Shown piece by piece: positions 1-12,396 of a DNA stretch of 64,000 nt. Origin of the DNA: Alistipes sp. (GTDB lineage Bacteria > Bacteroidota > Bacteroidia > Bacteroidales > Rikenellaceae). The notes beneath the pieces were generated by a model. That model did no database searches and was not told where the DNA came from. It saw nothing but the letters and a program-made list of their open reading frames with translations. Numbering within the stretch: the first letter of the stretch is position 1; the number at the start of each line of letters is the position of its first letter. The stretch covers positions 34,837 to 98,836 of the forward strand of contig JAGBEH010000005.1 of assembly GCA_017937125.1 (NCBI GenBank), given 5' to 3'. Made by a program: the position numbers and the translations under genes.

Positions 1-2481
1 GTCGGTAATGGGCGCCGATATCAAAGCATATCCCGCCTGGCTCTCGCCGTCGAACGTGTAGTTCATCAGTTTTGTCGAGATCTTGTCGAAATAGTAGTAG
101 TTCGCAACCTGCTGGTTACCGAGCGAACCGTACGAGAAACGGATTTTGGCGTTGTTCCAGACGTCGTTTATCTTCGAGTCTTTCCAGAAGCTCTCTTCGG
201 AGATGCGCCAGCCTGCCGATGCCGAGGGGAAGAAGCCCCAGCGATGACCGGGCGAGAAACGCGACGAACCGTCGTAACGTCCCGATACTTCGAAGAGATA
301 TTTGCCCTTGTAGTCATAGTTCACGCGGGCGAAGAAGCCGAGCGTGCGATATGCCGAGTTGGCCTCCTCTGCTTTTTCGATTTCGCCCTGCGCCATATTT
401 ATGAAGCTGAGGTTTTCGCTGAGCGACCCCTTCTGACGGACCGACAGCGACGACTGGCGATAATCCTCGAAGTTGCCGCCGACCGTGGCCGCGAAGTTAT
501 GGTCTCCCCACGAGTGGTCGTATTGGAAATATACGTTCGCGACGTGTCCGTTGTAGTAGAGACGGTCCTCCTGATAGAAATCGTAGATCGAGCCGTTCGA
601 GAAGTTGCCTCCCGTGAGGCCGTTGCCTATGTACATACGTTTGTTTACGTTGTCGTACGAATTGGCCGTCGGCAGCGAACGGTATGTGCCCAGTCTGTCG
701 CGGCGACGATAGGTGTAATCCGCGATGAGCTTGAGATCCTTGTTCGGCAGAAGGTCGAACGTCAGCTTGTTCGAGACGATCCAGTAGTTGTTCTTGCGCG
801 CATTCTTGTTGCGGTCGTCCATCCATACGCCCGCACGTCCCGAACCCAACGGCGACGTGGCGTCCGCCATAAAGCCCGGTACCATATTTATCGTGCCGTC
901 GGGGTTGAACGGAACGTATGTGGGCGAGATGTTCTGGGTTACGTTCCAGAGAATACCCGACGACATCAAGCCTTCCGAACCGTCCTGCTCCCAGTAACCG
1001 CCGTATTTGTAACTCGATGCTTCGAAGCTTACGTTGCCCGAATACGTGAGCCATTTGGTTACCTTGGCGTTTATCTTCGAGCGCAGCGAGTAGCCGTTGT
1101 ACTTGTCTTCGGCACCTCCGTTGAAAAGACCTTCGCGATAGAGATAACGGCCGCTGACGTAGTAGTCCACCTTTTCATTGCCGCCCGATAAGGATATGTT
1201 GTGCTCCGTTTCGGAACGTTCGCGCTTGAAGAAGTAGCCGTACCAGTCGTAGTTGCCCAGGTAGACGTTCGAGTATTTGCCCGTAGTGTCTTCCACGACC
1301 CACGGACGTGCGGCGTTCTCTTTGGTGTCGTAGCGGCGTTCCTTGAGCATCGCCATCTGTTCGTCGGTGTATGTCCACGCATTGTGGCCGCGAGATGAGT
1401 TGTAGAACTCGTTGGTGAAGTTTACATAGTCGTAGCCCGACGTTATGAAGTCGGTCGAGGTGGTGTTCCACGATACGCCGTAACGGCCGTTGTAGTTCAC
1501 CTTCAGACGATCGGCGCTGCCTTTCTTCGTGGTTATGAGCACGACGCCCGCCGATGCCTTGGCACCGTATATCGAAGCGGAGGATGCGTCCTTGAGGACG
1601 GATACCGACTCGATGTCGTTGGGGTTCACCTGCGCGAGGTCGGCCTCGACGCCGTCTACCAGAATCAGCGGGTCGCCGCTGTTGAGCGAAACGGAACCGC
1701 GAATGGATACCGAGTAGTTCTTGCTCTCGATGGAGCCGCTGCCCATAGTCAGCAACAGCGAGGGATCGGCTCCCTGCAATGCGGCTGCGGCATTGGTTAC
1801 CGGTCGGTTGTTGAGGTCTTTACCGTCGATGACGCCTACGGCGCCCGTCACATTGACCTTCTTCTGCTGGCCGTAACCGACGATTACCACCTCGTCGATG
1901 CCCGTCGTCGCTTCGGTGAGCGTTACGGTAAGCGGATTGTAGGTGGCGACATTCACGCTGGCGTCGGCATAGCCGATGAACGAGATGTTCAGCACTGCCG
2001 GCAGCTTGACGTTCGTCAGCTCGAACGATCCGTCCGTTGCCGTGGTCGTACCGATAAGGGTTTTATCGACGACGACCGTAGCTCCCGCCACGGGCAGGCC
2101 TGCCGAATCTTTCACGATACCCTTAATCGCTTCAATTGCAGTATTTTTGAGGGGGGGGGTAGCCGCGGCCTTCACAACCGAAACATTGCGTCCGTTGATT
2201 GTGTAGGCTACCTGCTGGCCGCTGAAAATGCGGTCGAGCACCTCCTCGATCGATGCGTTGCGGACAGAAACGTTCACCGTACGCATCATGTCGATGCCCT
2301 CAGACTGAATAACTACCGAGTAGTTTTCCTGCTGGTTGAGGGCTGCGACAGCTTCCTTGACCGTTACGTTCGAAAGTTGCAGATCGATTTTCTGCGCCAT
2401 ACCCGCCGTCGGCAGGAACAGGGCGAAAACGAAGAACAACCGTGCTGCGAACCATAGAGGCCGATGTAAAGTTCTCTTCAT
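1..2481 (-). CDS. SusC/RagA-family TonB-dependent transporter with N-terminal STN signalling domain (5' part; runs off the left edge)
   Basis: Manual translation from ATG 2481 gives signal peptide MKRTLHRPLWFAARLFFVFALFLPTAGMA, an STN-like domain, then KGIVKDSAGLPVAGATV, VVIVGYGQQKKVNVTGA and NPNDIESVSVLKDASSASIYGAKASAGVVLITTKKG (typical SusC plug motifs). It is absent from the ORF track because no stop lies in the window. Confidence 0.95.
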   Translation of the reverse strand, partial: MKRTLHRPLWFAARLFFVFALFLPTAGMAQKIDLQLSNVTVKEAVAALNQQENYSVVIQSEGIDMMRTVNVSVRNASIEEVLDRIFSGQQVAYTINGRNVSVVKAAATPPLKNTAIEAIKGIVKDSAGLPVAGATVVVDKTLIGTTTATDGSFELTNVKLPAVLNISFIGYADASVNVATYNPLTVTLTEATTGIDEVVIVGYGQQKKVNVTGAVGVIDGKDLNNRPVTNAAAALQGADPSLLLTMGSGSIESKNYSVSIRGSVSLNSGDPLILVDGVEADLAQVNPNDIESVSVLKDASSASIYGAKASAGVVLITTKKGSADRLKVNYNGRYGVSWNTTSTDFITSGYDYVNFTNEFYNSSRGHNAWTYTDEQMAMLKERRYDTKENAARPWVVEDTTGKYSNVYLGNYDWYGYFFKRERSETEHNISLSGGNEKVDYYVSGRYLYREGLFNGGAEDKYNGYSLRSKINAKVTKWLTYSGNVSFEASSYKYGGYWEQDGSEGLMSSGILWNVTQNISPTYVPFNPDGTINMVPGFMADATSPLGSGRAGVWMDDRNKNARKNNYWIVSNKLTFDLLPNKDLKLIADYTYRRRDRLGTYRSLPTANSYDNVNKRMYIGNGLTGGNFSNGSIYDFYQEDRLYYNGHVANVYFQYDHSWGDHNFAATVGGNFEDYRQSSLSVRQKGSLSENLSFINMAQGEIEKAEEANSAYRTLGFFARVNYDYKGKYLFEVSGRYDGSSRFSPGHRWGFFPSASAGWRISEESFWKDSKINDVWNNAKIRFSYGSLGNQQVANYYYFDKISTKLMNYTFDGESQAGYALISAPITD
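2151..2159. repeat. G9 homopolymer (C9 on the coding strand) inside the SusC ORF, currently in frame
   Basis: Sequence ga-GGGGGGGGG-t. The coding strand reads ACC CCC CCC CTC (T-P-P-L) in the linker after the STN domain. Confidence 0.95.
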
Positions 2482-2514
2482 AGGTTTTTGTTTTTAATTA
2501 GGTTTTGGTCGATT

Positions 2515-3504
2515 TTATTGCTTGCGTCGAATGTATATTATGCCGTCGCGTTCGTTCACCCTGATCGATTTGTTCATCGTGAAGACCTTCATAACATCCG
2601 ACAGCGATTCGGTTCCCGACAGGAATACGTGGAAGCGGATCGACAGCAGATTGGGGTCGGTGATGACGATCTGGCGGTTGAAGCGGCGCGAAAGTTGGGT
2701 GGCTATGTTGCCCAGCGACTCGTTGAAGAAGTAGATGCTGCCGTCGCGGGCCCAGGAGTGGTAGTTGTCGCCGTTGAAGCGGCTTTGTTCGAGATTGCCC
2801 GACATACGGTTGTAACGTACTATGTCGTTGGGCGTCATCATTATGTGGCCGACATATTTGGGACTGTCGATGTCGAAGCGTACGCTGCCTTCGACCAGCA
2901 TAAGCTCTATCTCCTTGTCGTTGTTGTAGGCGCGGAGCCCGAAGGTCGTGCCGAGCACGCGGATGTCGGCATCGCCCGCCGAAACGATGAACGGGTGTTC
3001 GGCATCGTGCGCCACTTCGGCGTAGACTTCGCCGTCTACGAAAATCTTGCGCTCGGGGCCGTTGAATGCTGTCGGATATATTACCCGGGTGCCGGCTCCG
3101 AGCCACAGCTGCGTGCCGTCCGACAGTGCCAGCTGGCGGCGTTCGCCGCAGGGCACCGATACCTGCGTCCACTCGGGGCGGTTGGTGCGTATGTCGGAGA
3201 TGTAGAGCAGCGAGGCCGCCACGGTGATGAGCGGTATGACGATTGCGGCTGCTACGGCGCGGCGGAATGCCTTGCGCCATACTATTTGCGAAGAACGGCG
3301 GCCGAAGAGACGCTCGTGGGTCTTTTTGAGGGCCTGTTCCGTGTTCGCCGAGTATGATGATGTGCGTTCCCAAAGGTCGGTCAGCGCCTCTTCCTTCTTC
3401 TCGGCATCCGCGGGCGACGAGAGCCACTGCGCGAAGAGTTTGCGTATGACGGACGGTTGGTCGCGTTCGGCGAAATTGTCGATAATCCGTTTTTGTTTGG
3501 TCAT
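2515..3504 (-). CDS. FecR-family anti-sigma factor
   Basis: Single TM helix (AAAIVIPLITVAASLLYI), LSDGTQLWLGAGT and VDGEVYAEVAHDAEHPFIV FecR motifs; lies between the ECF sigma and SusC genes. Confidence 0.93.
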   Translation of the reverse strand: MTKQKRIIDNFAERDQPSVIRKLFAQWLSSPADAEKKEEALTDLWERTSSYSANTEQALKKTHERLFGRRSSQIVWRKAFRRAVAAAIVIPLITVAASLLYISDIRTNRPEWTQVSVPCGERRQLALSDGTQLWLGAGTRVIYPTAFNGPERKIFVDGEVYAEVAHDAEHPFIVSAGDADIRVLGTTFGLRAYNNDKEIELMLVEGSVRFDIDSPKYVGHIMMTPNDIVRYNRMSGNLEQSRFNGDNYHSWARDGSIYFFNESLGNIATQLSRRFNRQIVITDPNLLSIRFHVFLSGTESLSDVMKVFTMNKSIRVNERDGIIYIRRKQ

Positions 3505-3525
3505 AGTGCGGTGTCGCTTTTATTA

Positions 3526-3554
3526 TTATGACGTAAAAAAAGCGCTTTGCACCC
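3526..3554 (-). promoter_or_regulatory. Candidate ECF-sigma promoter for fecR-susC (GGGTG-N16-CGTC)
   Basis: The minus strand reads GGGTG caaagcgcttttttta CGTC ataat just upstream of fecR. This resembles ECF -35/-10 spacing; the assignment is inference only. Confidence 0.3.
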
Positions 3555-3580
3555 AAGCGGATTGTAAAATTTTTCGAAAT

Positions 3581-4135
3581 TTACAGCGAGAAGAACACCA
3601 ATACCGACAAAGTGCTGACGATTTTGCGCAAATCGCGCGTTGCCAGATTGATCTGGTTTTCGACGGTCTTTTTGGATATGCCGAGTGTCTCGGCGATCTC
3701 TTCGTTGGACATTCCCTCGAAACGGCTCATACGGAATATCTCGCGTCGGCGTTCGGGGAAATTCTCGACGGCCATACGTATAAGCAGCTCTTTTTCAAGG
3801 GCGAAATAGCGTTCGTCGAGAAGGTCGCCGTCCGCCAGTTCCGAAATTTCCGACGACATAGTGCGGCTCGTATCGTGCGAGCGGCGCATATAGTCTATCA
3901 CGGCGTTGCGTGCAGACGTATATATGTATGAGTTCAAATAACGCACTTCGCCGAGGGCGTGCCGCGAGTTCCACAGATTGACGAATACGTCCTGCGTAAG
4001 GTCCTCGGCTACGGAATTCTGCTTCACCAGCGAACGGATGAAGTTGCTGACCGGACCGTAGTATTGGCGGAATAGTGCGTCGAATGCCTCCTGACTGCCT
4101 TCGGCCACCGATGCCGCAAGTTTCGTATCGTCCAT
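3581..4135 (-). CDS. ECF RNA polymerase sigma-70 factor (FecI-like, Bacteroidota PUL type)
   Basis: AEDLTQDVFVNLW (region 2) and RREIFRMSRFEGMSNEEIAETLGISKKTVENQI (region 4); adjacent to fecR. Confidence 0.95.
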   Translation of the reverse strand: MDDTKLAASVAEGSQEAFDALFRQYYGPVSNFIRSLVKQNSVAEDLTQDVFVNLWNSRHALGEVRYLNSYIYTSARNAVIDYMRRSHDTSRTMSSEISELADGDLLDERYFALEKELLIRMAVENFPERRREIFRMSRFEGMSNEEIAETLGISKKTVENQINLATRDLRKIVSTLSVLVFFSL

Positions 4136-4261
4136 ATCGTCGTTCGGTTGTAGTTGGGAATACTAAATTATGCATTATTTCCGAATTTTCAAAAATTGCG
4201 GGGTCTATTTTGTAAATTTTACGAACGCCGTCATCCCGCGAAATCCGTAACCGCATAACAA

Positions 4262-4288
4262 TTAAGGCCGATCGTCGATCGGCCTTAA
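4262..4288. terminator. Perfect 13-bp inverted repeat, probable terminator after the DeoR gene
   Basis: TTAAGGCCGATCG-T-CGATCGGCCTTAA. Confidence 0.6.
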
Positions 4289-4313: not shown

Positions 4314-5090
4314 TTATTCCGCTATGATGAGCTCGACACCCGCTTCGGTGATGAGTTTTTTCATCTGGGGGGCGATGCCGTTGTCGGTGATTATCACATC
4401 TACGTCCTCCAGTGCGTTTATGCGCCCGAACCCGTGCTGCCCGAATTTCGAGGAGTCGGCCAGAACGACCGTCTTCGACGTCACGTTCATCATCTTGCGC
4501 GAGAGCAACGCCTCTTCGATTGTGGAGGTGGTGATTCCGTAGTCGGGGTCTATGCCGTCCACGCCGAGGAAGAACTTCGAACATACCATATCCGTGAGCG
4601 ATGCGGTGGCGCCTTCTCCCAGCGTCGCGCAAGATTTCTTATGTATCTTTCCGCCGAGCTGTTCTACGCGGACGTTGTCCAGTTCGTTGAGCAGTACCGA
4701 TACCTTCAGGAACGGCGTCACTACGTTCAGGGAGCGCTGCGGCATCTGGTCGTGGATGACTTCGGCCAGGGCGAATGTCGTGGAGCCCGCCGAGAGCATT
4801 ATCGCGTCGTTGTCCTCGATGAGTTCGGCGGCGCGTTTGGCTATAAGCATCTTGGCTTCGCGATTGAGACTGCTTTTGAGGTTCAGGTCGCGGTCCGCGA
4901 CGTGAGGATTGACGGGGCGGGCGCTTCCGTGCACCTTGTAAAGCAGGCCTCGGCTTTCGAGGATCTTGATGTCCTTGCGGACGGTGACTTTCGTCACTTT
5001 CAGCTCTTCGGCTATGTCGGCTATGCGTATGAAGCCGTATTTTTCGAGGCTGTCGAGAATGTATTTGTGTCTTTCGGCAATACTTAACAT
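4314..5090 (-). CDS. DeoR/GlpR-family transcriptional regulator
   Basis: Start moved to MLSIAERHKYIL; HTH IAEELKVTKVTVRKDIKILE; sensor-domain motifs LSAGSTT, FLGVDGID and VLADSSKFG. Confidence 0.93.
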   Translation of the reverse strand: MLSIAERHKYILDSLEKYGFIRIADIAEELKVTKVTVRKDIKILESRGLLYKVHGSARPVNPHVADRDLNLKSSLNREAKMLIAKRAAELIEDNDAIMLSAGSTTFALAEVIHDQMPQRSLNVVTPFLKVSVLLNELDNVRVEQLGGKIHKKSCATLGEGATASLTDMVCSKFFLGVDGIDPDYGITTSTIEEALLSRKMMNVTSKTVVLADSSKFGQHGFGRINALEDVDVIITDNGIAPQMKKLITEAGVELIIAE

Positions 5091-5196
5091 CGTATGGCTG
5101 TTTATTTGTTCATAAATCGGGAAATGTATTATTTTCAACGGGATGATACCTCAGTCCGAAGCGGCGGCGATTCCCTTGCCCGAGCAAAAATAATTA

Positions 5197-6522
5197 TTAT
5201 TTCGTGTTTTGCAAAACTTCGGTCCAAAATTGTTTGACGTCTTTCCAGCGATAATACGGAGCCGTGGCGGATGCTACGGGTATGCGCACTTCGTGCTCGT
5301 TGAGTATAATCTTCACGAGAATATCGTCCGAAGCCGCCGACCGGTAAAACACCGCCTGCAAGTTCGCGGCCATAGGCGTAATGCGGTAATTCACCCACGA
5401 TTCCTCGATTTTGTCGTCGTCGGCGACCCGTTCGGCGCATCCGTATATCTGCATCAGGGCCGTCATCGCCATAAGCGACGTGTCGTGCCCGAAACGCAGC
5501 GATGCGGAGGGCTGCCCTGCGGCGAGCGCATGGTCAGTCTCTTCGATGAATACCCTCAACATATTCTTGGCTTCGCCCAGAATCGTATTCCCGTAGCGAG
5601 CCGAAGGTCCGAAACGGTGATACTCGTCGAAGTTCATATACCGCCAAAGGCCGTACAGTTCTTCGGTCGTGAACAGATCGCCGAGCGTGACATCGTCTAT
5701 GTCGAGTCCTTGCAGCGATACGGCGTTGAGCATAAGTTTGCGGGTGAAATCGTATGCGTCGAACCTGCCTTCCGCATAATCGGGCTTGGTGAACAGCAGC
5801 CCCGTAATTCGTGCGGGGTCGATGTTGCGCCGCATAAATTCGTTGCGCAGGGCAGCCCACTCGGGATCCGTGTTCCTGATTATGCCTTGCGCCTTTTCCG
5901 AGAGCAGCGGATTGAAATCCTTGCGGAAACAGTGCAGTTTGTACATATGCGCCGCCGATGCGTCGCGTGTGATTTCCAGAGACGGATTGTGCTCTTTCAA
6001 CGCATCGCACGCAGCCGCCATACTCAACAGGCAGCGCGGTACGACGGACGACCACACCGTGATTTTCGTACCGCGGCGTTTGAAGATCTCGGGGAAGTTG
6101 TCGGCCATACGCGCCGCTATTTCGCGGTGCTGGCGTGCCCCGAGCTGCGTAAGTTCGCCCGCGCGGTTTTTGGCGACGGAATATATGCGCTGCATACGTG
6201 TGCGGACATCCTTGCCCAGCGGCGTGAGTTTGCCTGCATAGTACGCCTTGTCCAGAATCTCTACGGGGTCGTCGTACTCGTCGTTCAGCAGCAGGTAGCG
6301 CGACCCGTGACGCCCGTAATGCGTGAGATAGAAGGGCTTGTAGCCTTTGGGCGCGGGCGTTAGCGTCTCTTCGGGTGCGGGATAGGCGAGGTAAACGCCT
6401 CCCGCCTTGTTTATGTCCGCCTCGATCTCCTGCTTTGCGTTTTGGGCGGCGGCGCGGAAGGTCGGCAGTGTCGTCATTGCCGCCGACAGCAGCAGGACGA
6501 CGGTTAGGTAAGCTCTTTTCAT
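5197..6522 (-). CDS. Secreted histidine acid phosphatase (MINPP/phytase-like)
   Basis: Signal peptide, RHGSRY catalytic motif and LRFGHDT (HD) motif. Confidence 0.88.
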   Translation of the reverse strand: MKRAYLTVVLLLSAAMTTLPTFRAAAQNAKQEIEADINKAGGVYLAYPAPEETLTPAPKGYKPFYLTHYGRHGSRYLLLNDEYDDPVEILDKAYYAGKLTPLGKDVRTRMQRIYSVAKNRAGELTQLGARQHREIAARMADNFPEIFKRRGTKITVWSSVVPRCLLSMAAACDALKEHNPSLEITRDASAAHMYKLHCFRKDFNPLLSEKAQGIIRNTDPEWAALRNEFMRRNIDPARITGLLFTKPDYAEGRFDAYDFTRKLMLNAVSLQGLDIDDVTLGDLFTTEELYGLWRYMNFDEYHRFGPSARYGNTILGEAKNMLRVFIEETDHALAAGQPSASLRFGHDTSLMAMTALMQIYGCAERVADDDKIEESWVNYRITPMAANLQAVFYRSAASDDILVKIILNEHEVRIPVASATAPYYRWKDVKQFWTEVLQNTK

Positions 6523-6534
6523 ATCGTATGTTCG

Positions 6535-7896
6535 TTATCGCAGATAGGCTCCCGTTTCCTTGAGCTCTCTACGCAGTTTGTCGGTATCTGTTTGCGAGAC
6601 GGCGACGTTGTCGCGCACGGCGAGTTTGGCCGCGCGCCCCGCCGCTTCGCCCATAGCCATACAGGTGGACATCACGCGTGTGGATGCCATAGCCTCGTGC
6701 GTGGCCGATGCGCAGCGTCCCGCGACGAGGAGGTTCTCGACATTCGCGGGTACCAGCGAACGGAAGGGTATGTCGTAGCAGTCCTCGCACCAGTAGAGCG
6801 TGCAGTCGCCGCCTACGGCGTGATGAATGTCTACGGGGTAGCTCGCGACGGCTACGGCGTCGTCGAAACGGCGGCACGAAAGAATATCTTCGGCCGTGAG
6901 TACGTATTTGCCGACCGTTACGCGGCTCTCGCGAATGCCCGTAAACGGAGCGACCTTGTCCATATGCGCATCGGCGAAGCCCGGAACGAAGCGGCGCAGA
7001 TAACGCTCGATGTCATAGATCTGTTTGCGTGCCGTCAGCTCGCCGCGGGTGTAGCTCTCGGGACGGGTGGAGTCCACGCCGTTCACGCGCGACATATTCA
7101 CCCATATCTCGTCGTCGGCCATACCCGTGATAAGTATCGTGCGCGCCACCGGAATATCTATACCCTCCTTGCGGGCCTCCTCTATCTTGCGGCGCAGTCC
7201 CACGGTGATGAATTTGCCCGTGCGGAACTGCTCGGCCGGCATAGTGTCCATATCGTAAATGTCGGGGTGTTCCACTATGGCATCGCGCAGCGCCTGCACA
7301 TCGACGCCCTTCATCGAGAACATCAGCGTCGGCGGCTGCATACCTCCGTCGGCATCGCCCTTGCGGCACTCTACGCCCGCACGGAATGCTATGTCGCCGT
7401 CGCCCGTGCAGTCTATGACCGTCTTGGCGAGTATGGCCTCGCGTCCCGCCTTGCTCTCGATGATTACGCCGCGTACGGCATCCCCCTCCTTTACGACATC
7501 CGCGCAGAACGCATACATAAGTATCTCGACACCTGCCTCTTCGAGCATTTCGAGGGCCGTGCTTTTGGCCTGTTCGGGATCGATTATCGTAAGGCTCACG
7601 TGCAATGCGCAGGGACGGTGTTCGCTCGCCGCGCCTTTCGCCCGCAGGCGGTCGATGAACTTCTGAGGCAGCCCCTTTATTATCTGATTGCCCTTGCGGC
7701 CCAAAAATCCGAGTATCGGCAGTCCTATGGCGAGGTTGCCGCCTACGAAACCGCGGCTCTCCACCAGCATGACTTTCAGTCCGTCTTCGGCGGCGGCCAA
7801 AGCTGCCATAATCCCTGCGGGACCTCCTCCGACGACGAGGATATCGACTTCATTGCGCACGGCGATCTCGCGTGCGGGTTCTTTTACTGTTTTCAT
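6535..7896 (-). CDS. Cytoplasmic FAD-dependent oxidoreductase (FAD_oxidored/PF12831-like), substrate unknown
   Basis: Rossmann motif DILVVGGGPAG, VIDCTGDGD, GIRESR, and YDIPFRSLVP...NLLVAGRC...MAMGEAAG; no signal peptide. Confidence 0.9.
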   Translation of the reverse strand: MKTVKEPAREIAVRNEVDILVVGGGPAGIMAALAAAEDGLKVMLVESRGFVGGNLAIGLPILGFLGRKGNQIIKGLPQKFIDRLRAKGAASEHRPCALHVSLTIIDPEQAKSTALEMLEEAGVEILMYAFCADVVKEGDAVRGVIIESKAGREAILAKTVIDCTGDGDIAFRAGVECRKGDADGGMQPPTLMFSMKGVDVQALRDAIVEHPDIYDMDTMPAEQFRTGKFITVGLRRKIEEARKEGIDIPVARTILITGMADDEIWVNMSRVNGVDSTRPESYTRGELTARKQIYDIERYLRRFVPGFADAHMDKVAPFTGIRESRVTVGKYVLTAEDILSCRRFDDAVAVASYPVDIHHAVGGDCTLYWCEDCYDIPFRSLVPANVENLLVAGRCASATHEAMASTRVMSTCMAMGEAAGRAAKLAVRDNVAVSQTDTDKLRRELKETGAYLR

Positions 7897-7908
7897 AGGC
7901 TGTATCGG

Positions 7909-9213
7909 TTATTTTACGGTTTCGGGTGTTTCGGGACGCATCATTTTCCACAGCACCAGTGCGGCGAAGATGTGGAGCGTGGCCATAATGCAGAAAAGCA
8001 CGGTCCACATATCGGATGGTATCGAGCCGGTGAATCGGTTGAATATCACGCTGCCCAAGGCTCCCGCGCCGCACCCTATGCCCATAACGGTTGCGATGTT
8101 GCGTACGGGGAATATCTCGGCCATAACGACGGGTACGGTGTAGAGCCAGCTCAGGCACATTACGGCTATGAGGCTGAATACGGCCGTCACCAGACCTATT
8201 TTCCATACGAACGGGAGCGATGCGGCGCCGCCGATGAACGGAACCGTCGCGCATAGGGGCGCGAAGGCCACGAGGGCGATGAGCGTCAGTTTGCGTGCCG
8301 CGAGCGGGCTCTTGCCGCGGCGGATGAGTGCGTCCGACCATATGGAGGTGAGGATGCCGCCTATGGCGCCTATCAGGAATGGGATGCCGCCGATCCATTG
8401 TATCATATCGAGCGTCTGTTCGTTCGAGAGGTTCTGCGCGGCGCCCATATCGCGCAAATACCCTGGCAGCCAGAAACAGCAGAAATACCATACGGGGTCG
8501 CTTATCAGGCGTATGAGCACCATACCCCACAGCGAACGGGTGCGCAGCAGCCCGCCGAACGAGAACGACGGACGTTCGCTCCCGTTGTCGGAGCGGCTGT
8601 CGGCATTTACCGTGCGGTCGAGCACTTCGGCCGACGGCGTTTTGTAAATGAATATCCACAGCAGCGCAATCGCAAGCCCCGTGAAGCCCGCCACCATAAA
8701 TACCTCCTGCCAGTCGGACAGCAGCCGCATAAGCCACGCGATGACCAAAGGTGCTATGACGGCGCCGAGCGAGCCGCCGACGGTGCAGAGGCTGTTGGCC
8801 GTGGCCCTCTGACGGCGTTCGAACCAGAGGGTCACGACTACTATCTGTCCTGCGAATATCGTAGGTTCGGCCAGCCCGAGCAGCCCGCGGCAGACGGCGA
8901 ATGCAAGGGCGCTGTCGGCCAGTCCTCCGCCGATGCAGGCGAGCGACCAGACCGTGATTCCGCCGAGCATCACCTTTTTCGGGCCGAAGCGATCGACCAG
9001 AATGCCCGAGACGGGATACATTACGGCGTAACATATCAGGAACGCATTGACTATCCATGCATACATAAGGTCGTCGATAGAGAAATGTTCCAGAATCTCG
9101 GGCTTGAGAATCGACAGCAGCTGCCTGTCGAGGTAGTTGCATATGATGGCTGCGAATATCGTGGCCACGATGGCCCATTTGCGTTTTTCGGGGTTTTTCA
9201 GGATGTCGAACAT
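7909..9213 (-). CDS. MFS transporter (ExuT/ACS-like sugar-acid or organic anion family)
   Basis: About 12 hydrophobic segments, NYLDRQLLS, GILVDRFGPK and RGLLGLAE; start moved to ATG 9213. Confidence 0.9.
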   Translation of the reverse strand: MFDILKNPEKRKWAIVATIFAAIICNYLDRQLLSILKPEILEHFSIDDLMYAWIVNAFLICYAVMYPVSGILVDRFGPKKVMLGGITVWSLACIGGGLADSALAFAVCRGLLGLAEPTIFAGQIVVVTLWFERRQRATANSLCTVGGSLGAVIAPLVIAWLMRLLSDWQEVFMVAGFTGLAIALLWIFIYKTPSAEVLDRTVNADSRSDNGSERPSFSFGGLLRTRSLWGMVLIRLISDPVWYFCCFWLPGYLRDMGAAQNLSNEQTLDMIQWIGGIPFLIGAIGGILTSIWSDALIRRGKSPLAARKLTLIALVAFAPLCATVPFIGGAASLPFVWKIGLVTAVFSLIAVMCLSWLYTVPVVMAEIFPVRNIATVMGIGCGAGALGSVIFNRFTGSIPSDMWTVLFCIMATLHIFAALVLWKMMRPETPETVK

Positions 9214-9292
9214 AGGTTTGGGCACTACGGTTTTTCAGTCGGTTGTAATATTAGGCGGGCGGATGATCGGTCGGCTCGGGCCGACCGTCGCG

Positions 9293-11472: not shown

Positions 11473-12396
11473 CTAATTTTTATCCGATGCGACGTCTTTT
11501 TTCACCGCCGCGTTTTCGAATCGCCGCCGTTTTTCGACGGGGTACAGTCGGAAAGTGCAGATTACGGGGTAATGGTCGGAGACATACGGGACGCCGTAGT
11601 CGCCGTCGAGCGTTCTGTAACGGACAGGTTCGGCGTTGCGGTAGAAAATATGGTCGAGATAGTGTTGCCGCGTCTTGCCGAAACCGTTGTAGGATGGTTT
11701 GTCGTCGGTCTCGGGAGCCGTTTCACGCGCGGGGCGCATCAGTGCGTGCAGCGGTGCGAGCGACGGATTGTCGATCCTCATATTCAGGTCGCCCGAAACG
11801 AAGACGGGCAATGTCGGGTCGGCTGCCGACATTTCGCGTATTCTGTCGGCAATCATTTCTGCCTCCTTTTGGCGGGCGACGACGCCCTTGTGGTCGAAAT
11901 GGGTGGTCAGGTATACGAACTGCTTTCGGGTCTTGAGATCCATAAGCCTTACCCATACCGCAACCCGTCGGTTGTGGGCGTCCCAGCCTATCGATGCCTT
12001 CTCGGGGGTCTCGCTCATCCAGAACGACCCGTGGTCGAGCATCAGGTATTTGTCGCGTTTCCACATTATCATAACATGGTACCCTCCGTCTTCGCGTCCC
12101 TTGAGTCCGAAATCGTTCCCCAGACGGACATTGGCATAGTCCGCAAGATTCTCTGTCAGATAGTTCACCTGCCGTATGCGCGGCTCCTGAAAGCCTGCGA
12201 CGTCGGGACTTTCGCGGCGGATAACCTCGATGCAGGCCTCTTTACGGTCGTCCCAACCGTTTTCCTTGTCGAATTTGTTCTCATAACGGATATTGAACGA
12301 CATAATGTTCAATTCCGTCATCTTTCCGTGAGGCCGTGCGGCATAGGCCTCCGCTATCATCATTGACGCGATTATGAACAGCAGCGGTTTTTTCAT
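11473..12396 (-). CDS. Secreted endonuclease/exonuclease/phosphatase (EEP) family protein
   Basis: Signal peptide, MSFNIRY, DVAGFQE, GDLN, LDHIF and SDHYPV motifs. Confidence 0.92.
   Translation of the reverse strand: MKKPLLFIIASMMIAEAYAARPHGKMTELNIMSFNIRYENKFDKENGWDDRKEACIEVIRRESPDVAGFQEPRIRQVNYLTENLADYANVRLGNDFGLKGREDGGYHVMIMWKRDKYLMLDHGSFWMSETPEKASIGWDAHNRRVAVWVRLMDLKTRKQFVYLTTHFDHKGVVARQKEAEMIADRIREMSAADPTLPVFVSGDLNMRIDNPSLAPLHALMRPARETAPETDDKPSYNGFGKTRQHYLDHIFYRNAEPVRYRTLDGDYGVPYVSDHYPVICTFRLYPVEKRRRFENAAVKKDVASDKN

Follow-up and report, generated by a model that had tools for sequence, protein, structure and literature searches.

Three separable modules with a phosphoester theme meet at an Alistipes locus encoding a PF12831 flavoenzyme

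We examined a window of 64,000 nucleotides from the Alistipes sp. assembly GCA_017937125.1 (contig JAGBEH010000005.1, positions 34,837 to 98,836; G000:C3:34837-98836 in our genome set), and also fetched and annotated the 35 kb to its left. Our subject is a run of four genes in this window, all on the minus strand, and the locus that adjoins it. Open reading frame (ORF) calls combined with Pfam and NCBIfam searches identify a major facilitator superfamily (MFS) transporter of the anion:cation symporter (ACS) type (438 amino acids; 7909 to 9225, starting at GTG 9225 or ATG 9213), a predicted cytoplasmic FAD-dependent oxidoreductase assigned by Pfam to PF12831 (453 amino acids; 6535 to 7896), a secreted, MINPP-like branch-2 histidine phosphatase recognized by Pfam, PDB homology and a signal peptide (441 amino acids; 5197 to 6522), and a DeoR-family repressor (4314 to 5138; the ORF opens at TTG 5138 and the probable start is ATG 5090). 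The gap between the MFS and flavoenzyme genes (stop at 7909, start at 7896) and that between the flavoenzyme and phosphatase genes (stop at 6535, start at 6522) are both exactly 12 nt, and this spacing suggests that the three genes are cotranscribed. The gap between the phosphatase and DeoR is wider, at 58 nt if DeoR starts at TTG 5138 and 106 nt if it starts at the first ATG, 5090. Directly 3' of the phosphatase stop it contains TATTTTTG (5185 to 5192, minus strand), a short and weak motif read by eye that resembles the Bacteroidetes -7 promoter consensus, TAnnTTTG. Because the gap holds this candidate box at 5192-5185, DeoR may have a promoter of its own.

A perfect hairpin with a 12-bp stem and a 3-nt loop follows DeoR (4262 to 4288, minus strand). 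Its folding energy in context is -29.1 kcal/mol (z = -5.55), which none of 200 shuffled sequences matched. A clean T-run is lacking on the coding strand, and the hairpin is probably a terminator or a module boundary. Beyond it, also on the minus strand, are an extracytoplasmic function (ECF) sigma factor (3581 to 4135; TIGR02985 Sig70_bacteroi1, 155 bits, above the cutoff), a FecR-type anti-sigma factor (2515 to 3504; FecR and FecR_C) and the N-terminal 827 amino acids of a SusC/RagA protein with an STN domain (1 to 2481; TIGR04056, 554 bits; STN, Plug and CarboxypepD_reg), which runs past the left edge of the window. A first-pass annotation of this DNA had described four co-oriented genes with 12-bp gaps among the first three, closed by a perfect hairpin and followed by an ECF/FecR/SusC unit, and all of these elements are confirmed here by coordinates, folding, and Pfam and NCBIfam matches. 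It had also read the four genes as one compact pathway for an unknown phosphorylated substrate, with uptake across the outer membrane. The comparisons below favor a phosphorylated substrate and separate the four genes into modules.

The flavoenzyme matches the whole FAD_oxidored profile (PF12831, positions 1-416 of 416; 405.9 bits, 3e-121), has a GxGxxG dinucleotide fold and carries no signal peptide. Its AlphaFold2 (AF2) model is a two-domain flavoprotein fold with a pLDDT of 90.5. Sequence and profile searches of the PDB matched the FAD-binding N terminus and returned no characterized full-length relative, and a Foldseek search of the AF2 model against the PDB yielded only generic GR2-fold matches (TM ~0.5) with no functional lead, in keeping with the original remark that no substrate is assigned to flavoenzymes of this type. 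The match of the protein to DAO is confined to its N-terminal Rossmann segment, which places it outside the DAO family of GlpD and EryB, and the genome encodes its true GlpD separately. Residues R322, R325, H358, H400 and R407 are invariant or nearly so in an alignment of relatives, and an anionic substrate would suit these conserved Arg and His residues. Across species-representative genomes, 72 loci were found to encode a relative of the flavoenzyme, mostly 58-80% identical, in Bacteroidales, Verrucomicrobiota, Planctomycetota, Armatimonadota, Coriobacteriia and Alphaproteobacteria (at least five phyla). The protein is thus very highly conserved yet patchily distributed, and an orthologue is present in only 4 of 24 relatives within the genus.

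We mapped the neighbors of the flavoenzyme gene by tblastn and ORF clustering, counting partners within 6 kb among the 41 loci that have at least 5 kb on both sides. Most of the related loci are contigs of metagenome-assembled genomes (MAGs), and ORF calls in the fetched loci were mechanical, with some antisense ORFs discounted (clusters c4 and c7). The same MFS lies directly upstream in 26 of the 41 loci, a 550-amino-acid FGGY kinase resembling ribulokinase is also nearby in 26, and a secreted phosphoesterase of the endonuclease/exonuclease/phosphatase (EEP) superfamily is found in 28. Metallophos enzymes occur in 9/41 loci, a histidine phosphatase in 7/41 and a DeoR gene in 0/41, while a second flavoenzyme paralogue is present in 17 loci. 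Any secreted phosphoesterase accompanies the flavoenzyme in 31/41 loci, and it is this association that supports a pathway for a phosphorylated substrate. The regular partners are accordingly the kinase and the EEP enzyme, not the DeoR and histidine phosphatase with which the first-pass annotation had grouped the flavoenzyme. That no kinase or glycoside hydrolase (GH) lies in the four-gene set, as first noted, holds for this genome; elsewhere, the kinase is a regular member.

The composition of the cassette varies across lineages around this core. An MFS-EEP-FAD triad recurs in Verrucomicrobiota and Planctomycetota, and the Armatimonadota have EEP-FAD together with a pair of AP_endonuc_2 TIM barrels. 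The cassette adjoins a SusC-SusD-Metallophos unit in several Bacteroidales loci, and one locus (L025) is collinear as SusC-SusD-FAD-EEP. The Ereboglobus cluster adds ribulose-phosphate 3-epimerase (Rpe), a GatD-like polyol-phosphate dehydrogenase and a Metallophos-CBM96 protein, while GDPD, a GlpT-like transporter and a gene resembling glycerol-1-phosphate dehydrogenase are present in two further clusters (L027 and L068). The cassette kinases pass the ribulokinase equivalog model NF003154 (559-592 bits, cutoff 428) and fail the stricter TIGR01234. The cassette EEP is homologous to the mannosyl-6-phosphatase BT3783 (PDB 4C1R, 3e-19), and a PDB search with the cassette-linked Metallophos protein found no relative. 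Taken together, these partners suggest that the substrate is a small polyol or sugar in phosphorylated form, with pentulose-5-phosphate as the end point of its carbon, and the cassette has apparently spread horizontally. Searches of the literature for PF12831 and for a ribulokinase and FAD oxidoreductase cassette found nothing on it. A secreted EEP phosphoesterase is also encoded in the window 2 kb upstream of the four genes, past corA and mqnA (11473 to 12396, minus strand; Exo_endo_phos, 8e-15). We considered whether it is the missing cassette EEP and rejected this, as it is a distant paralogue (27% identity, BLASTP 9e-25 to the cassette EEP of L028).

Some copies of the flavoenzyme occur in other settings. 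Its closest relatives, at 79-80% identity, are in four Alistipes/Bacteroidales MAG loci (L013, L014, L017 and L018) that have no transporter, kinase or phosphatase; they are flanked by genes for a Sir2-like deacetylase and a malate dehydrogenase, both named from N-terminal sequence only. Because these copies stand alone, the flavoenzyme can evidently also work outside the cassette. In a Coriobacteriia MAG (L050, 7412-18091), five to six PF12831 paralogues surround an MFS gene and a ribulokinase-like kinase, and two of them carry about 180 extra C-terminal residues. This expansion suggests a set of related substrates.

The genome at hand encodes a single canonical ribulokinase (700 bits to NF003154), located on another contig (G000:C8:10730-12328; L080 8713-10350, minus strand). 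It stands alone among unrelated neighbors, which comprise a gene for an FG-GAP repeat protein and, as judged from N-terminal sequence only, carbamoyl-phosphate synthase genes and a DapA-like gene. Searches of the assembly, which is 90% complete and to which all absence calls refer, found no L-arabinose isomerase AraA, no class II aldolase/AraD (Aldolase_II) and no IolD. With AraA and AraD absent and its neighbors unrelated, the kinase was rejected as a member of an arabinose operon. L-Ribulose-5-phosphate would then be a dead end because both enzymes are missing, and D-ribulose-5-phosphate is for that reason the sensible product. Rpe and a GlpT orthologue are also encoded. The orphan ribulokinase would need a source of D-ribulose or a pentitol, for which the flavoenzyme is the obvious candidate. 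An earlier guess at inositol phosphates is weakened by the absence of IolD and by the company of the cassette, which goes with ribulokinase and Rpe rather than with iol genes.

The MFS transporter matches Pfam MFS_1 (1e-46), and its best NCBIfam match is the D-galactonate transporter subfamily TIGR00893, at 175.8 bits and thus below the cutoff of 395. Its best PDB match, and nearest structural-sequence relative, is the Escherichia coli D-galactonate:H+ symporter DgoT (6E9N, 3.5e-20, ~76 bits). In DgoT, an Asp-Arg pair in transmembrane helix 1 (TM1) and a Glu in TM4 are the proton-coupling and carboxylate-binding residues. The alignment keeps all three: YLDR corresponds to YVDR (D46/R47) and LAEP to IFEA (E133). 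Since these anion-binding and proton-coupling residues are kept, the imported species is probably still negatively charged. The sequence match to DgoT is nevertheless only 3.5e-20, and the cargo could be a phosphate ester instead of a carboxylate. A charged cargo argues against complete dephosphorylation before import and so modifies the proposed order of periplasmic dephosphorylation followed by MFS import. Upstream of this gene, immediately past the corA stop, is an 8-bp GC-rich hairpin, CGGTCGGC-CCGA-GCCGACCG (9258-9279), which leaves a very short promoter region of ~45 nt before the MFS start.

The histidine phosphatase has a signal peptide, a His_Phos_2 match (6e-10) and the motifs RHGSRY and GHDTS. 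It is a full-length homologue of the histidine acid phosphatase 7R5Y (4e-71) and of BtMinpp from Bacteroides thetaiotaomicron (4FDT/5CU7, about 1e-45, residues 33-438), which bears out its original placement among RHGxR/HD enzymes of the MINPP/phytase class. The catalytic motif RHGSRYL aligns with those of 7R5Y and BtMinpp and retains RHG and the second Arg but has Leu where RHGxRxP has Pro. The proton-donor tripeptide is HAE in MINPPs and HD in classical histidine acid phosphatases; here the position reads GHDTS, similar to GHDTN in 7R5Y. The phosphatase shares full-length homology, the RHG motif and secretion with both enzymes. Its identity to BtMinpp is modest, however, its motifs read RHGSRYL and GHDTS, its gene sits in a catabolic cassette, and phytase is a putative activity. 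Homologues in the genus are at most ~40% identical and never adjoin a flavoenzyme orthologue. A maximum-likelihood tree keeps the phosphatase outside the well-supported clade of polA/DeoR-linked enzymes, and orthology to the polA-linked phosphatases of congeners was rejected on this ground. Its nearest relative is a cassette-linked phosphatase (L003, 44%), although the tree leaves it undecided between the cassette-linked and the polA/DeoR-linked enzymes. A second MINPP-like paralogue (38%) is encoded elsewhere in the genome (G000:C4:406491-407702).

The DeoR protein has the expected domains (HTH_DeoR PF08220, 1e-13; DeoRC PF00455, 2e-42), and the NCBIfam models for AgaR, GlpR, SrlR and UlaR all score it below their cutoffs (AgaR, 193 bits against 260). 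Three congeners encode a DeoR that is 70-71% identical within an operon ordered polA, two histidine phosphatase genes, a 377-amino-acid secreted protein, DeoR and DUF3467; the secreted protein matches PHP weakly, at 20.7 bits, under the Pfam cutoff of 26.4. In these three genomes, the flavoenzyme sits on other contigs, in the order Metallophos (three genes), ribulokinase-like kinase, FAD, FAD and EEP. Because congeners keep the phosphatase-DeoR unit and the flavoenzyme cassette as separate loci, the four genes of the window are a mosaic in which a trimmed MFS-flavoenzyme-phosphatase set, without kinase and EEP, stands at a DeoR-controlled phosphatase locus with a SusC/SusD locus alongside. With its modules on different contigs in congeners and DeoR near none of the 41 flavoenzyme loci, the four genes are not co-conserved as one operon.

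The surrounding synteny carries traces of rearrangement. The kbl-asnC-queD-polA order that precedes the phosphatases, PHP-like gene and DeoR in congeners is kept here at C3:5810-11587 on the opposite strand, and the phosphatase and DeoR genes lie ~28 kb away from it. These two displacements suggest that the block between the SusC/SusD locus and the MFS gene was rearranged and expanded, by an inversion plus insertion of the SusC/SusD locus and the MFS-flavoenzyme pair. A Tannerella MAG (L072) offers a related arrangement, with a DeoR that is 53% identical beside GlpD (56%), SusC/SusD (38% and 37%) and two GlpT-like transporters. In that locus, at 2168-4175, a truncated SusC ORF of 521 amino acids runs into a 170-amino-acid remnant corresponding to flavoenzyme residues 290-453 (63% identity). 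The remnant marks a degraded copy of the cassette, next to which the DeoR-GlpD-SusC-SusD-GlpT-GlpT locus is intact.

The genes past the left edge of the window, where the first-pass annotation had expected SusD and enzymes, include both. SusC is followed by SusD (SusD_RagB, 8e-41), an S1/P1 nuclease, a 1,097-amino-acid DUF4988 protein whose C terminus is a NAGPA domain of the sugar-1-phosphodiester glycosidase type, an 812-amino-acid DUF4988 protein, a 1,422-amino-acid DUF4988-DUF4886 protein, a 1,233-amino-acid BACON protein and a GDPD-DUF4996 glycerophosphodiesterase. The run ends at a convergent glpD (DAO and DAO_C; NF008899 at 275 bits, below the cutoff of 360; 56% identical to GlpD of the Tannerella locus). 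The adjacent SusC and SusD genes are those of a polysaccharide utilization locus (PUL), without its GH or lyase: domain searches found no GH or polysaccharide lyase domain in the seven PUL proteins downstream of SusC. Every recognizable catalytic domain (S1/P1, NAGPA and GDPD) instead cleaves phosphodiesters, which fits the phosphoester theme of the cassette. PDB sequence searches with the large DUF4988 and BACON proteins gave a structural-genomics entry for DUF4886 (4I8I) as the sole match. Since the enzymes of the PUL are phosphodiesterases only, its target is probably held together by phosphodiester bonds and not by ordinary glycosidic bonds, as in a phosphate-linked polymer such as teichoic acid. 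We found no paper on a teichoic acid PUL in the searchable literature, and searches on phosphodiester glycosidases of Bacteroides and on 7R5Y yielded nothing on the cassette.

The PUL is kept as a unit in one congener (G155) and in another genus of Rikenellaceae (G074 and G095). The three copies have in common the ECF and FecR genes, SusC (47-48%), SusD (47-50%), the S1/P1 nuclease (44-75%), NAGPA, DUF4988, DUF4886 and GDPD (up to 77%), and the G155 copy ends with an OPA-like MFS gene. None of these three copies adjoins a DeoR, histidine phosphatase, PF12831 or ACS-type MFS gene. Because it has its own ECF/anti-sigma control and is kept elsewhere without the cassette, the SusC unit is an independent, self-regulated module. 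The genome encodes a second, paralogous PUL of this unusual type (G000:C4:103193-110000), with ECF-FecR-SusC-SusD (SusD 41-43%) and BACON and DUF4988 proteins nearby. Between polA and glpD, beyond the distal end of the PUL, sequence inspection alone identified an MBOAT gene resembling AlgI/DltB and a 316-amino-acid partner (G000:C3:11709-14109, minus strand of L081).

The locus thus consists of three separable modules with one theme, the recovery of carbon and phosphate held in phosphoesters. Our best reading, in which we place slightly less than even confidence, is that a phosphodiester-linked polyol or sugar polymer is broken down in the periplasm, a product is imported by the anion-type MFS and oxidized by the flavoenzyme, and its carbon enters metabolism as pentulose-5-phosphate. 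From the gene content, localization signals, conservation and module boundaries described above, we infer a polymer, a transported species, a flavoenzyme reaction, a DeoR ligand and coregulation of the modules as follows. Under trans-envelope ECF signaling, SusCD would bind and import a polymer or oligomer with phosphodiester links, for which a teichoic acid-like polyol/sugar phosphate polymer or a capsular phosphoglycan is the most plausible candidate. The S1/P1, NAGPA and GDPD homologues would cut it in the periplasm, and released glycerol-3-phosphate would enter by way of GlpT and GlpD. The MINPP-class phosphatase would trim phosphomonoesters of the other polyol or sugar phosphates in the periplasm; the ACS-type MFS would then import a small, probably still anionic product, to be oxidized by the flavoenzyme in the cytoplasm. 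Carbon would reach the pentose phosphate pathway as D-ribulose(-5-phosphate) through the single ribulokinase of the genome, and DeoR would sense a phosphorylated intermediate.

Teichoic acids are poly-ribitol-phosphate or poly-glycerol-phosphate chains with an N-acetylglucosamine-1-phosphate linkage unit and ester decorations, and, judged by predicted activities, they appear to fit the PUL enzyme set best. In a more specific version that we consider doubtful, the PUL and the MFS-PF12831-phosphatase set would use teichoic acid-type polyol-phosphate polymers of Gram-positive cell walls, and the PF12831 clade would be a new family of FAD-dependent pentitol(-phosphate) dehydrogenases feeding D-ribulokinase. 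Several observations weigh against a polyol-phosphate polymer and against joint action of the modules. Of the genomes examined, only this one has the cassette next to the PUL, and here the cassette lacks its EEP and the ribulokinase lies on another contig. ACS-type (TC 2.A.1.14) anion symporters are not expected to carry a neutral polyol, the S1/P1 nuclease indicates nucleic acids as much as teichoic acids, and MINPP-class enzymes are best known as phytases. To our knowledge, no polyol(-phosphate) dehydrogenase belongs to PF12831. Finally, four loci have the flavoenzyme without any tested partner, three of them with 78-80% identical copies (L013, L015 and L018).

The modules may instead be neighbors by chance, comprising a genus-level phosphatase-DeoR unit, a separate ECF-controlled PUL and an MFS-flavoenzyme pair whose substrate is an unrelated organic anion, such as a sugar acid undergoing oxidation, decarboxylation to a pentulose and then phosphorylation. 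We judge this rather unlikely, although the PUL is kept without the cassette, the phosphatase-DeoR unit is kept without the MFS-flavoenzyme pair, and a strong hairpin and separate regulators lie between the units. The resemblance of the MFS to the DgoT sugar-acid symporter, including the conserved carboxylate-binding Arg, and the AP_endonuc_2 genes that flank the flavoenzyme in Armatimonadota would suit a sugar acid; UlaR-type DeoR regulators and AP_endonuc_2 epimerases are known from ketoaldonate-to-pentulose routes. An unrelated anion is harder to reconcile with a secreted phosphoesterase beside the flavoenzyme in 31/41 loci across phyla, with SusC/SusD and Metallophos genes at several of them, and with the 12-nt spacing that joins the MFS and flavoenzyme to a phosphatase here.

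Two other substrates would preserve a phosphoester theme, and we give low credence to each. Phytate (inositol hexakisphosphate) is abundant in the gut, and phosphatases acting on inositol phosphates are known from each of the histidine phosphatase, EEP and Metallophos superfamilies. In a phytate route, the MINPP-like phosphatase (elsewhere EEP or Metallophos enzymes) would dephosphorylate phytate after its uptake, inositol or its monophosphate would be imported, and the flavoenzyme would open a new inositol pathway. Full-length homology to BtMinpp, a proven phytase, favors this route, as do the AP_endonuc_2 neighbors of the flavoenzyme in Armatimonadota, which have the IolE/IolI fold. It is opposed by the missing IolD, by the histidine phosphatase being present in only 7/41 loci, and by a constant partner, ribulokinase (with Rpe in Ereboglobus), that is unfit for a C6 cyclitol; the PUL enzymes, moreover, are diesterases, and phytate contains no diester bonds. 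An equally improbable scheme is scavenging of RNA, DNA or nucleotide-sugars by the S1/P1 nuclease and phosphoesterases, with the histidine phosphatase removing terminal phosphates, the MFS, flavoenzyme and kinase salvaging the pentose, and DeoR sensing a pentose phosphate. The nuclease directly follows SusD and is kept in all versions of the PUL. Nucleases and nucleotidases are known in the EEP and PHP families, PHP being the weak, below-cutoff match in the phosphatase-DeoR operon of congeners. DeoR is the archetypal deoxyribose regulator, and ribose utilization PULs reportedly exist in Bacteroides (bioRxiv 10.1101/574913). Nevertheless, the locus contains no ribokinase, nucleoside hydrolase or nucleoside transporter, NAGPA and GDPD are inactive on nucleic acids, the nearest match of the cassette EEP is a sugar-6-phosphatase, and ribulokinase plays no part in ribose or deoxyribose catabolism.

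The reading we prefer remains one in which a phosphodiester-linked polyol or sugar polymer is broken down, and the locus is a phosphoester-targeting, PUL-like system with an uncharacterized downstream module. Gram-positive cell wall polymers, nucleic acids and other phosphodiester-linked matter make up a large and poorly charted nutrient pool in the gut, and we found no characterized Bacteroidales system for such material in the searchable literature. Two targets emerge, the GH-free SusCD locus conserved in Rikenellaceae and the flavoenzyme/ribulokinase/EEP/MFS cassette without an assigned reaction. A function for either one would carry over to the annotation of related genes in many genomes from gut and soil and would add a flavin-dependent step to pentitol/pentulose metabolism.

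Among known systems, the closest architecture is that of the Pus (PusCD) loci of Flavobacterium, in which a SusCD-like pair is accompanied by phosphomonoesterases, phosphodiesterases and inner-membrane organophosphate transporters in place of GHs and is induced by depletion of inorganic phosphate (Lidbury et al. 2020, PMC8115612). The combination of a SusCD-like pair, phosphoesterases and a transporter is found here as well. The Alistipes locus differs from Pus loci in its ECF/anti-sigma and DeoR control, in belonging to a gut anaerobe, in its association with carbon-catabolic genes (flavoenzyme, glpD and ribulokinase) and in its enzymes (S1/P1, NAGPA, DUF4988 and GDPD). BT3783, the mannosyl-6-phosphatase of a yeast mannan PUL (Cuskin et al. 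2015, PMC4978465), offers a second comparison. Like BT3783, the homologous cassette-linked EEPs are secreted, PUL-associated sugar phosphatases; unlike the BT3783 system, the window has no mannosidases and no EEP in its cassette, the 27% paralogue lying 2 kb off.

The downstream module is best compared with polyol catabolism. The erythritol route of Brucella combines an FGGY kinase, EryA, with an FAD-dependent polyol-phosphate dehydrogenase, EryB; GlpD and EryB are members of the DAO family, and RbtD is a member of SDR. A D-ribulokinase is linked to a ribitol dehydrogenase and a permease (PMC12307932). The ribitol operon of Klebsiella is rbtD-rbtK-rbtT. The GlpT/GlpK/GlpD, EryA/EryB and rbtD-rbtK-rbtT systems share with the cassette the same logic, in which a transporter, an FGGY kinase and a flavin- or NAD-dependent dehydrogenase convert a polyol to a ketose phosphate under DeoR-type control. 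Unlike GlpD, EryB and RbtD, the flavoenzyme described here is a PF12831 protein with no characterized member nearby, and its likeness to these dehydrogenases is one of functional analogy, not of family membership.

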